A stretch of 63,738 nucleotides of DNA, counting the filler, from Collodictyon triciliatum (Eukaryota): NCBI GenBank assembly GCA_043381765.1. It is 6 parts of 6 records of this genome, joined end to end, with 100 filler letters (N's around TTAATTAATTAA, not from the genome) between each part and the next. Parts side by side here need not be neighbours in the genome. Positions count along the whole stretch, not along the records: positions 9,120 to 21,522 come from JBHJMP010000514.1; positions 21,623 to 42,766 come from JBHJMP010000517.1; positions 42,867 to 54,344 come from JBHJMP010000520.1; 3 more parts are not named here. The stretch is one strand, 5' to 3'. The position numbers were made by a program, and so were the translations under genes. The notes beneath the pieces are model-generated. The model had not been told where the DNA came from. It saw nothing but the letters and a program-made list of their open reading frames with translations, and searched no databases. Positions 9,076 through 54,115 of the stretch are shown piece by piece. The first letter of the stretch is position 1. The number at the start of each line of letters is the position of its first letter.

Positions 9076-10659
9076 NNNNNNNNNNNNNNNNNNNNNNNNN
9101 NNNNNNNNNNNNNNNNNNNATAATAATAATAATAATAATAATAATAATAATAATAATAATAATAATAATAATAATAATAATAATAATAATAATAATAATA
9201 ATAATAATAATAATAATAATAAAATTAACAAAATTTTGAAGTTTGAAATCTATATGCATTCGATTAGCTCTAGAAAAATCAAATATGGAGATGAGTTCCC
9301 AGCATCAGCACTTTTTTTTTGTTTTTTGTTTTTTGTTTTTTGTTGGGTTTTGTTGGGTTTTGTTGTTGTTGCTTTTATGGCCTTGTTTTAAAGAAATATG
9401 ATTTTGGACATGAGTCCTTGATTTCTGTCTGAATAGAAATAGTTTTTATCTAGACTGATATAGATATTTGGTTCATATAATACTGCACGACTGAACTTTA
9501 TGTATTTTCAATATATCATGTCTTTTGGGGGTATCAATAAAACTACTACTCATTTTACACCAATAAAGAACCAGCAACATTCAAAGCGCATCCAACACAA
9601 TTTTTCTATTATTTTACCTTTTTTATTTAAAACAAAAAAACAAAAAAAAAAAAACGTATGGTTGGCCGTGCTGTTTGTATATTAAATGCAAGTAGACAAG
9701 ACAATAAACATTCTACTCTCCAGCATTCCAATTTACAAAATTACTCGAGTATTGAAACTATGATTTATGTACACCTGTGTCGGTGAGGGAGTCAAGCGCC
9801 TTTTGATTCATCTCTTAGCTTTTGCCTATATGGTTATAATTTTCGAGAAACTTAATGATATAGAAGCGATGCATCTTTACACACACAGATACAAAAATTG
9901 GGCCCGTGTATATATCGTCTGCTGTTGCACGCGATAAGCCATGTTATGCCGAACATGTCCGCAGTATATGCATAAAATGCCGAGAATACAAAAAGAAAAA
10001 AAGAATTATTCCGGCGATGCAGCAAGCTCTGTGTATGTCCACATATTTTTTTTCAATAAACACAAGCGCCAATTTTGAGGCTGGCAGTGAAGAAAAAAAA
10101 CTATGCGCGGGAGCACGCCCATCAGAACAGTTTAATTTCACACCAGCAACACATTACATCGCCTGCAACCACTCACAGGAAGAAATTATTTTATTTTTTT
10201 TATAGACACGAATAAGCTAAAATACTTAGACATAAAGAAATAAATGCTAAAGACAAATCTATTTTGTCCCAGCTTGTTTTATTTTGGTCTTGCAACACAA
10301 TTCTTCGTAGATGGCGGATGGAATCGAAGATCAAAAGGATTCGAGTAATTGAAAAGATGAGAGCTATACGCACTTTGAGATTCATCTCACACTGGCTCTA
10401 AATAATGTTTTCAAAACATCGATTAGTAGTATTCTCTTATAAAATTGATCAAAAAAGGAGAGAAGGGAAATGAAGAAAAAGACATGAAAGATGTGTATGA
10501 GAGAAGCAAAACAGGATAAGTCGAGTAATTTTTATTATAGAATCCATCTCTGTTGCACTTTTAGTATTATTTGAGAAAACATAAATCCCTGCTCTTTGAA
10601 TAGAATAAAGGGAGAAAAGCAATGAGTCTGTATTGGTGTTACCTTATAACTGATTGAAA

Positions 10660-11785
10660 TTATACGAAGCGGCTGTTTGTCATATTGATAAAACAGCGTT
10701 GCGTTGGATCAAACGGACGGCGAAATATCTCTTTCTGAGACTCATCCAGGTTGCGCCACTCGCCTGCGATCAAAATCATGAGCTCCTTATTAGAAATATG
10801 CGGGTGACATCTTTGGTAGTGGTGACGATAGAGAGAGCTGAACCGGACAAATGCTTTCCTGGAGGGACATTTGTCTTCCTCGATGTTTCTGAAGGACATA
10901 GAACCCGATCGAGTTCGTCCTGTCTCTGCGTCCATGTTTGCATCTCTTTAAAATAATTGCATCATAATGAGTTATCAGATCTGTTTGAATATACCGGCCT
11001 AATTTATTATTTATTTCGGAGAAAGATATTGTACTGGGGTGATTGATTCATTAACATTTATGTTGGAGGTTTATTTTGGAAGTTTTCTTCACATTTTGTA
11101 TTATGGAATATTATGGAGAATTATGATTAGTCTTCTCTCAAGGCGATGAATAAACAATGTTAATTTTATACCTTTGTGGTACGCACACTGTGACTTTTTG
11201 TTGCCTGGTTACTTTCTGGAAATCATCAGATTCTAGAGTATGCCAAACGATTCGCCTTTTTGGTTTTTTAAAAGTTGTTTTCTTTTTCTGGGTTATCGAT
11301 TCATTAGCTGTGGTGGTAGGAGACAGGCTCGCGCTTTCATCTCTTCCGGTCGGACTATCAATTCCATCTGTTACAGAAGGTTCACCCAAATGGCCACCGC
11401 TATCCATCAAAGGTGTGACAGACACAGAGTATTCAAAAAATATGTGACTGTTTGATTGGTTGAGTGCTTCCGTGGGGTCCGGCTGGAACTGCTGCTCACC
11501 ATCACAACCGATCTGAATCGAGGTTACATGAGAACAGTAGTTTCTTTTTAAACCTCTTCAATGAGGGTGTCGAAATCGGATTGAAACAAGAGCTCATAAC
11601 TTATGCACTTTTTGATGTGGTCGAAAGAGACCAATTACCTTGTGCGATTCTTGGGCGAACAGAAAGTCGAAGTCAGAGAACCCCGCGTCTAAGTCCAGGT
11701 TGAGGTAAGCTAACCAGCTTGTGTCAGAAGACTCTGGCATACGGCAGTTCGCGCTGTGTGAGCTTCCCGTGACGTGACTATCCAT
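10660..11785 (-). CDS. HMG-box protein, 3 exons (about 11785-11639, 11512-11171, 10946-10660)
   Basis: The last exon encodes KAFVRFSSLYRHHYQRCHPHISNKELMILIAGEWRNLDESQKEIF, an HMG-box pattern (AF..F....R......HP....E....L..EW..L....K..Y/F). Splice phases are consistent (AAG|GT...AG|ATC; AG|GT...AG|A). Confidence 0.75.
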
Positions 11786-52525: not shown

Positions 52526-52809
52526 CTGTTGTGTAAGTTTTTTGTGTTTTTTTTTTTTTCATATTTTTTCGTTTGGAGCAAAAGCTATTGTAAGTATTTT
52601 CTTGATAATTCGATAGATGATATAACTATTTCATCGATATGACGTAACAATAAAATGATTCTGTAGCTGGTTTGTTTGTAGTTTGTGTTAGAAAGGGAGG
52701 TAAAATATTGTCTTGCACGATTACAAACTAAGATTCATGAACAAGTGAGTGCCGTTTTGTGAAGAGATGCATGACTGGGTTATTCAATTAGGGAGCAGCA
52801 ATCAAGTAC

Positions 52810-54115
52810 CAGAAGCAAGGAGACAATCTTGTGGTTGGCTGCGTCAGCGAGAGTGAGTGCAGTATTCTCTTCATTGTCCTTAATCCCCAAATCAATCCCG
52901 TAGCGGAGAAGTAAATGCACTATCTTGACATGGCCTTTCGTGGCAGCAATATGGAACGAAGTTTTCCTTCATATGAGAAAAACACCGTGATTTATTTTTA
53001 TTTGTTTAAAGTATTTCATGGGCCTTTTTTTAATTAGAAATAGGGAAAAGAAGCTTTTCTTTCTTTCTGACTCTCCATTTTTATTTTTCGGAGATTAGTT
53101 TCATGGGGTAGATATATATTTTTTTCCCCCTTTATTTGATTCACGAGGTGCATGATCAAATAAAAGTCTAACCCATCTAGCCTTGTCGCACTGACGTTCG
53201 CCCCATTTTGAAGTAAAACTTCGGCGCATTCGGCCCATCCTTTCTCAGCACAAATCAAAAGAGAGGTAAGACCTTGAAATCGGCTTTGTTGGTGGTTGAC
53301 ATTTGCCTTCGCACTGAGCAGAAACTTGATTCTGCATTGTGTAATAAAGATGAATACAGAATAAAATGACAGAAATAGAGATGAGAAGAAGGCGGTCAGT
53401 TATAAAATCGATTAAATGAAAAATCAAAAATCGTAAAAAGCTATTGAATTGCAAAAGAAAAAAAGAGAGGAATGTATGATTGTAATATGCTGAATACAAG
53501 CATTTGAGAATACGTGTTCACAGGTTTTTGTAATTATAAGAATAGTAATTTCCATATATGATATGGATTGCGAAATGGAAAAGTACATGTGTGGGTGATT
53601 TGCCCAGACAGCGTGCATAAGTGGGGTGTATTGCTGATAATTCTCTTGGTCGACCTCAGAGCCTGCATAAATAAGGGCCTGGACAATATCCAAATGTCCC
53701 TCTCGACAAGCCTTTTGTATAGGATATTTAATGTTATCATGTATCAATCTTGGTTGTTACGTAATGATGTGTATATACTGGTAGAGATATTAAGAATAGC
53801 ATGAAAAGAAATTACATGAAAAATATAAAGCGTCATAAGGAGACTTAAAAACATAGAATATGGTCGAAATGCAGTCTCGGATTTAGGCAATCGTTGAGAA
53901 GCACATTGTATGAACGTGAGTGCCAGTGGTAAGGTCTGGTCAAGTTAAAAAAAGAATGAAGTAAAACGAATGGCCAACCAGCGCCAAGGGGGTGTTCCCA
54001 TTCTCATCAGTGCTTTTTAGAAGACTGGAAGTGACGTCTGTGTGTGTCTGCAGAATCTCCTGCACTTTTTGGCTTTGATTGGCCCGAGCAGCCTTGGCGA
54101 GATCCACAAAGACTC
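52810..54115 (-). CDS. About five ankyrin repeats, probably the N-terminal part of the PAP phosphatase gene. 5' end uncertain.
   Basis: GNTPLALACREGHLDIVQALIYAG, YTPLMHAVWANHPHIIKFLL, GLTSLLICAEKGWAECAEVLLQNGANV, GKTSFHIAATKGHVKIVHLLLRYG, ENTALTLA. Introns are phase-consistent. Confidence 0.85.

Follow-up and report, generated by a model that had tools for sequence, protein, structure and literature searches.

Copies of LINEs that are truncated at the 5' end are usually 100-1000 bp long (PMC3747384, available text), and the 'severely truncated' L1 insertions of tumours have a mean length of 585 bp (PMC3514663, accessible part). According to the available portion of PMC2912911, the cause of LINE 5' truncation has long been debated; nearly 80% of the truncated human L1 copies have microhomology, whereas full-length copies show it at chance level, and a standard comparative screen has a floor of 50 bp. 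Truncation limits gene insertion based on R2 or L1. In the stringent-type LINEs, including some plant and algal members of the L1 clade, the reverse transcriptase (RT) recognises a stem-loop in the 3' UTR; the review PMC3747384, in the part available, does not tie such stems to a truncation cliff.

In the present study, we analysed a stretch of 63,738 nucleotides (hereafter, the window) from Collodictyon triciliatum, a eukaryote with introns, in which the first-pass annotation had noted a dispersed 16-bp motif. The motif very probably forms the final 16 nt, at the 3' end, of a LINE of the L1/Tx1 type (family A), inserted by target-primed reverse transcription (TPRT); this confidence covers the identity and the route of insertion, and excludes the cause of the length cliff described below. 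As in 5'-truncated human L1 insertions, there are a protein with endonuclease (APE), RT and zf-RVT domains, an A-tail and a TT|AA target. The target-site duplications (TSDs) are 15-19 bp, while those of full-length L1 peak at 14-16 bp (PMC2912911, same portion), and in some copies (L093) the 3' end is opposite in orientation to the RT piece, as in L1 5' inversions. Unlike truncated L1, the copies have a mode of 18-19 nt, a cliff within two bases and microhomology at chance level. Thus, by the features tested, these stubs are 5'-truncated insertions of an L1-type LINE, and only broad, microhomology-guided truncation fails. What is new here is a class of retro-insertion with a fixed length of 18-19 nt, copying by TPRT itself being already known. 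Our literature search, with most subscription papers and supplements outside its reach, found neither the motif nor a class of fixed-length LINE stubs described, and the available part of bioRxiv 2024.12.14.628481 contains nothing on modes of insertion length. Since the stubs lie below the 50-bp floor, they may be overlooked elsewhere and taken for regulatory motifs, as in this case.

Occurrence of the motif

All of the 12 copies listed by the first-pass annotation were found again with the same coordinates, strands and mismatch counts, on three of the six joined pieces of the window (spacers checked), together with a 13th match (Table 1). The 13 matches with at most two mismatches compare with 0.14 expected from shuffled sequences (the maximum of 100 shuffles was 2). 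In the host genome (75.4 Mb, 14,576 contigs) the 16-mer has 2268 exact matches, balanced between the strands (1138 plus and 1130 minus), and the reversed pattern used as a control has no exact match. The view of the motif as a DNA-level, non-random and orientation-independent element was borne out, as was its extension by CT on the 5' side and a G/A run on the 3' side. The flanks beyond, which had been called unrelated, are not so: on its two sides a copy has direct repeats, the TSD, and long copies have hundreds of upstream bases in common. Placement in introns or intergenic DNA was checked visually in a small number of copies.

Table 1. Motif matches and related LINE insertions in the window (positions along the whole stretch)
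Positions	Strand	Family	Feature	Duplication	Remarks
10596..10611	+	A	decayed tip	none recognisable	
12116..12131	-	A	13th match, 2 mismatches, no A-tail		chance or very old copy possible
12445..12504	+	A	complete micro-insertion: 16-nt LINE tip 12460-12475, A-tail 12476-12484	TSD 12445-12459 (15 bp), second target copy 12485-12499; 20-nt perfect direct repeat, extending 5 nt beyond 12499 through microhomology	score 16.8
17564..17579	+	A	decayed tip	none recognisable	
18023..18038	-	A	decayed tip	none recognisable	
20841..20887	+	A	older tip, 2 mismatches	9-bp remnant	
22137..22152	+	A	decayed tip	none recognisable	
32091..32142	-	A	18-nt tip and A-tail	decayed	weak score
32820..33035	-	A	long copy with the terminal 210 nt of the LINE (ORF2 end and 3' UTR), motif at 32826-32841		matches RT-bearing L067 at 94% along these 210 nt; cut by an N gap at 33036
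36248..36303	+	A	18-nt tip and GG/A tail	decayed 15-bp TSD, 3 mismatches	borderline score
40769..40822	-	A	18-nt tip and A-tail	15-bp TSD, 2 mismatches	
44212..44280	+	B	29-nt tip and tail	perfect 16-bp TSD	
45035..45090	-	A	15-nt tip and A-tail	possible 17-bp TSD, 3 mismatches	below threshold
53129..53144	-	A	decayed tip with G/A tail	none clear	
55567..55647	+	B	36-nt tip and A-tail	perfect 19-bp TSD	

The family A copies of the window are mostly old: one of the 13 matches (12445-12504) has a perfect TSD, and three more (20841, 36248 and 40769) are borderline, with scores of 6.5-7.1. Four mismatches in the window do fall on the central CpG, as had been pointed out. A methylation signal at this CpG is unsupported, because two of the four are C>A transversions, mutations are spread over other G positions (in a larger set of copies, the CpG takes 13 of the 55 mismatches, eight of them of the deamination type, and the other three G positions take 10), and the observed/expected CpG ratio across the window is 0.67-1.28.

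The parent LINE and the marks of insertion

A motif extended to 29 nt has 514 matches in the genome at one mismatch, the longest of which have more than 90 nt upstream in common. There are at least 135 RT matches in the genome, and three (L066, L067 and L071) of the 20 RT loci that we retrieved end in the motif and an A-tail on the same strand; in L067 this end lies 93 nt past the ORF2 stop codon. Pieces of family A match the RVT_1, Exo_endo_phos and zf-RVT profiles. In L085 the RT has an E value of 3e-26 and two endonuclease pieces have values just below the cut-off (8e-6 and 3e-5), and the zf-RVT match of L067 reaches 33.2 bits against a cut-off of 27.5. RNase H had no match in the open pieces scanned, which cover some of the ORF2 pieces. 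Neither an intact full-length copy nor an ORF1 was recovered, the copies that were read holding stop codons, frameshifts or N gaps, and the open stretches upstream in L085 gave no Pfam match.

The stubs of a sister, family B, came to light in a generic search for A-tailed inserts between TSDs, in which 887 kb, overlaps included, gave 75 hits; this count is biased, as most of the loci had been picked for the motif. Nearly all of these hits are LINE tips, the others including one pure poly(A), one A-rich hexamer and one other insert below 10 nt. With so few inserts below 10 nt, in loci biased to the motif, we rejected the idea that very short stubs predominate. The stub sequence of family B corresponds to the 3' end of its own LINE (L094); its tip has 974 exact 18-letter matches genome-wide, and a probe further upstream finds 407 long copies. 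In L083, endonuclease and RT (PF03372 and PF00078) lie within one ORF2 frame. The RT DNA of the two families is about 73% identical. The closest solved relative of the family B ORF2 is human L1 ORF2p (E 7e-45; R2 proteins, 2e-19), and the database relatives of ORF2 are distant (21-32% identity), the best matches, at 23-32%, carrying zf-RVT and some being named TX1 or LINE-1. Judged by these sequence comparisons, the parent is an L1/Tx1-type LINE.

For the scoring of TSDs we used the first-listed genome places and the window, giving 152 non-redundant anchors, of which 102 were exact; 97 of these were testable, the other five having N or short flanks. A TSD was called when the direct repeat exceeded the 97th percentile of flank-swapped controls. 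It was present in 72 of the 97 testable exact copies, versus 4 of the 194 flank-swapped controls, and a significant TSD was absent in 25. Among 219 copies with at most two mismatches, 59 have perfect repeats, 53 of which are 15-19 bp long. Between the repeats lie the motif, then zero to a few extra G residues, then a short A-run, so that the A-tail and the TSD of about 7-20 bp that mark TPRT insertion are both present. The rebuilt target (n = 72) has T at -2 in 42 cases and at -1 in 54, and A at +1 in 63 and at +2 in 43; this is the TT|AA(AA) endonuclease target, with a bias built in at -1, which can never be A owing to the repeat-extension procedure. A DNA-transposon footprint or MITE is ruled out by the A-tail and by TSDs that vary from 12 to 22 bp. 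The 'minimal transposon footprint' that the first-pass annotation had offered among its options was therefore the nearest of them, although what is present is the tip of a retrotransposon, inserted between duplicated target copies, and not an excision footprint. Alignment of the flanks with a transposon, which the annotation had named as counting against its proposal, was indeed found, the transposon being the LINE.

The stubs also resemble SINEs with a LINE tail, since both are short, non-coding, A-tailed, TSD-flanked and abundant and have a LINE 3' end in common. However, the stubs have no head or promoter of their own, their lengths grade into the parent LINE, and we saw no sign of re-copying. 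Upstream of the longer copies lie the 3' UTR and ORF2 of the LINE, and a search of Rfam with the 3' ends of three loci gave no match over the cut-off, two sub-threshold hits both lying in flanking DNA.

Length of the stubs

Exact genome-wide counts fall from 2268 for the 16-nt tip to 1830 at 18 nt and 745 at 20 nt; thus, 59% are lost from 18 to 20 nt, versus 19% over the preceding two bases. In the 102 exact copies, the per-base stop rate is 0.12 at 16-17 nt, 0.35 at 18-19, 0.10 at 20-22, 0.04 at 23-44 and 0.006 past 44; 92 of these copies end within 41 nt and 10 exceed 45 nt. Below the peak at 18-19 nt there is a shoulder of 10-15-nt stubs: a 10-nt core with tail has 2278 matches in the genome, and by eye its first 100 places comprise 76 exact 16-mers, seven mutated longer copies and 17 true stubs of 10-15 nt. 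A probe 72-97 nt upstream finds 444 long family A copies genome-wide at two mismatches, and the local sample (10 of 102) under-represents them. No relation was seen between TSD length and tip length. A fixed total length of the cDNA (tail plus tip) was rejected, the correlation of tail with tip giving rho -0.23 (p 0.09) and the totals of family B being spread over 23-62 nt.

Family B behaves differently, 55 of its 62 copies being spread over 17-52 nt. Among TSD-bearing copies, tips of 20 nt or less make up 2 of 42 in family B versus 37 of 59 in family A (p 6e-10, by criteria that are not identical for the two). As family B does not have the 18-19-nt peak of family A, the lengths track the RNA sequence and there is no host-wide cut; short products characterise this lineage of LINEs. 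It is the short, sharply fixed length of the stubs that is unusual, the copying process itself being ordinary.

Possible causes of the length cliff

One possible explanation, which we favour tentatively, is that the cliff arises because the RT aborts early on reaching a small hairpin in the 3' UTR, one that would be held by the protein for template recognition. The length edge of each family lies near such a predicted hairpin, which suggests an abort as the RT clears the bound RNA. In family A, the predicted stem closes at -18/-19 and reaches -39; in family B, the same 5' arm forms a predicted stem at -39 to -62. Both predicted hairpins have an A/C-rich loop, and about 90% of the locally sampled copies of both families end before the far side of the hairpin. 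The predicted hairpin, small and close to the 3' end, would be a likeness to the stringent-type LINEs, as is the finding that the micro-insertions are nearly all LINE tips; in contrast to those LINEs, the hairpin here is a predicted fold. By analogy with L1 biology, the ORF2 protein would nick AT-rich DNA at TT|AA, reverse transcription would start on the A-tail of the RNA, and a second nick about 16-17 bp away would set the length of the duplication. In most events the cDNA would be joined to the target once only 18-19 templated bases had been copied, and the outcome would be an insert of about 26 nt flanked by duplications of 15-19 bp. An RT that clears the hairpin would run on processively, and the inserted copies would decay as neutral sequence.

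Several observations keep this explanation tentative. Shuffled sequences fold as well as the 3' end does (z -0.15 to +1.26), and the stem is predicted to form with a probability of 0.72-0.94 in the A-variant and 0.36-0.38 in the G-variant. The lengths of family B cluster at the upper end of the arm and in the loop, away from the base of the stem, and most family B copies stop before the stem. The long copies within a family are too alike for hairpin covariation. Furthermore, the R2 RT is reportedly not slowed by RNA structure, and its truncations in vitro have no preferred sites (PMC13000458, available text), which counts against the hairpin. In a broader form, put forward a little more tentatively, a built-in early checkpoint of this LINE lineage, whether a hairpin held by the protein or a defined fragment of protected RNA, may end most events at a fixed, family-specific length. 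If such a checkpoint exists, the genome keeps thousands of natural records of the step from initiation to elongation in TPRT, and the two sister families are a natural experiment. A stop that is nearly fixed to a single base, beside a sister with another edge, makes the cause of truncation testable with a UTR of about 95 nt and one protein.

The 5' junctions bear on a different possibility, which we consider rather unlikely, that the template is cut before it is copied: the transcript would be cleaved, or trimmed from 5' to 3', to a fragment of about 26 nt covered by the ORF2 protein, which would then be copied in its entirety, as a full-length element is. At family A junctions of 16-20 nt (n = 28), 16 are blunt, nine have one base of microhomology and three have more, against a simulated chance of 55/32/14%; such chance-level microhomology resembles full-length and not truncated L1 (PMC2912911, the portion cited above), and extra bases occur at nine of 37 junctions in this size range. 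Family A copies of at least 21 nt show more microhomology, 6 of 12 having two or more bases (p 0.006 versus chance and 0.012 versus the peak), some of these copies having been selected for length via the 29-nt extension matches. However, family B junctions (n = 30) are also mostly blunt (10) or with extra bases (10), the rest having one base (four) or more (six) of microhomology, across many lengths; thus, bluntness is not specific to the peak of family A. The shoulder of 10-15-nt stubs also stands against a pre-cut template, as does the lack of any Rfam ribozyme match.

It is improbable that truncation is of the ordinary broad kind and that purifying selection and assembly loss have stripped the longer copies. 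The excess of long copies genome-wide (444 matches against 2268 tips) over the local sample would agree with such a loss, and four long copies do stop at gaps or contig ends. It cannot account for the 59% drop over two bases, nor for the different profile of family B within one genome.

That the motif is a functional DNA site under selection is very improbable; at most, some stubs may have been co-opted later. The many copies in both orientations speak for such a site. The chromatin or insulator site and the replication or recombination signal that the first-pass annotation proposed nevertheless found no support: every copy brings its own target duplication and tail, mismatches occur at all 16 positions, the sequence is that of the LINE terminus, and one stub is inserted within another LINE copy (L085).

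A library adapter, primer or assembly artefact, which the fragmented assembly with its many gaps might bring to mind, is practically out of the question, as the duplications are copy-specific and partly decayed, the lengths are graded up to the RT gene, a 24-letter form has a single match, a long LINE 3' end, among 241 million metagenome records (a collection that may omit the records of this genome itself), and contigs of four independent runs carry the element end with other flanks.

These four low-share runs were compared with a 5.7-kb locus (L136). The pieces that match it measure 177-442 nt, with an identity of 96-100%, and a large number of the contigs in these runs are of the kind with the element end and other flanks. 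One older stub is common to L136 and run X1, no stub was seen to be absent across the contigs of the four runs, and one contig of run X3 ends exactly at a 5' junction, an unconfirmed hint of an empty site.

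Micro-insertions within and outside the two LINE families

LINE-tip micro-insertions were also found for a second family, family B (the sister of family A in this genome), the tips of which are 17-52 nt long and flanked by perfect 15-19-bp duplications. The family B tip has 974 exact matches in the genome assembly, and its insertions in the window are listed in the table. Nested insertions were observed: in locus L132 a family A stub carries a family B stub inserted into its tail, and a LINE ORF2 copy (L085/L065) is interrupted by a family A stub (L085, about 3200). One insert, seen a single time, matches neither family and is possibly a third LINE tip. 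It lies in L091 (minus strand, about 2845-2900 in reverse-complement coordinates), is 27 nt long, has an A-tail, and is accompanied by a perfect 16-bp duplication. The insert at L139 +7520 is a 12-nt poly(A) alone, with perfect 17-bp duplications on either side.

Simple repeats and internal deletions

Simple repeats are very abundant in this genome (80 TRF rows in the window). LINE tails in L054, L002, and L083 pass directly into microsatellites, and microsatellites adjoin the target-site duplications in L021 and L060; thus, some microsatellites may have been seeded by LINE stubs. Internal deletions between the RT and the 3' end differ among family A copies (L067/L081/L082, about 720 bp, versus L085; L088; L091), which suggests that these copies are non-autonomous derivatives.

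Other genes and elements

Locus L061 (contig C929 of the assembly) has a long open frame for a Ty3/gypsy-type LTR retrotransposon polyprotein with protease, RT, RNase H, and integrase domains. The end of the 650-codon frame looks, by eye, like Sel1-type repeats. In the intron-split LRR gene (Pfam match), cysteine-rich segments and multi-pass membrane segments come after the LRR part, and the product is receptor-like.

Features located in the window
Feature	Position	Strand
Family B micro-insertion	44212-44280	
Family B micro-insertion	55567-55647	
GC-rich island of the otherwise AT-rich window, containing the 650-codon open frame	6877-8829	+
LRR protein gene	25147-28022	+
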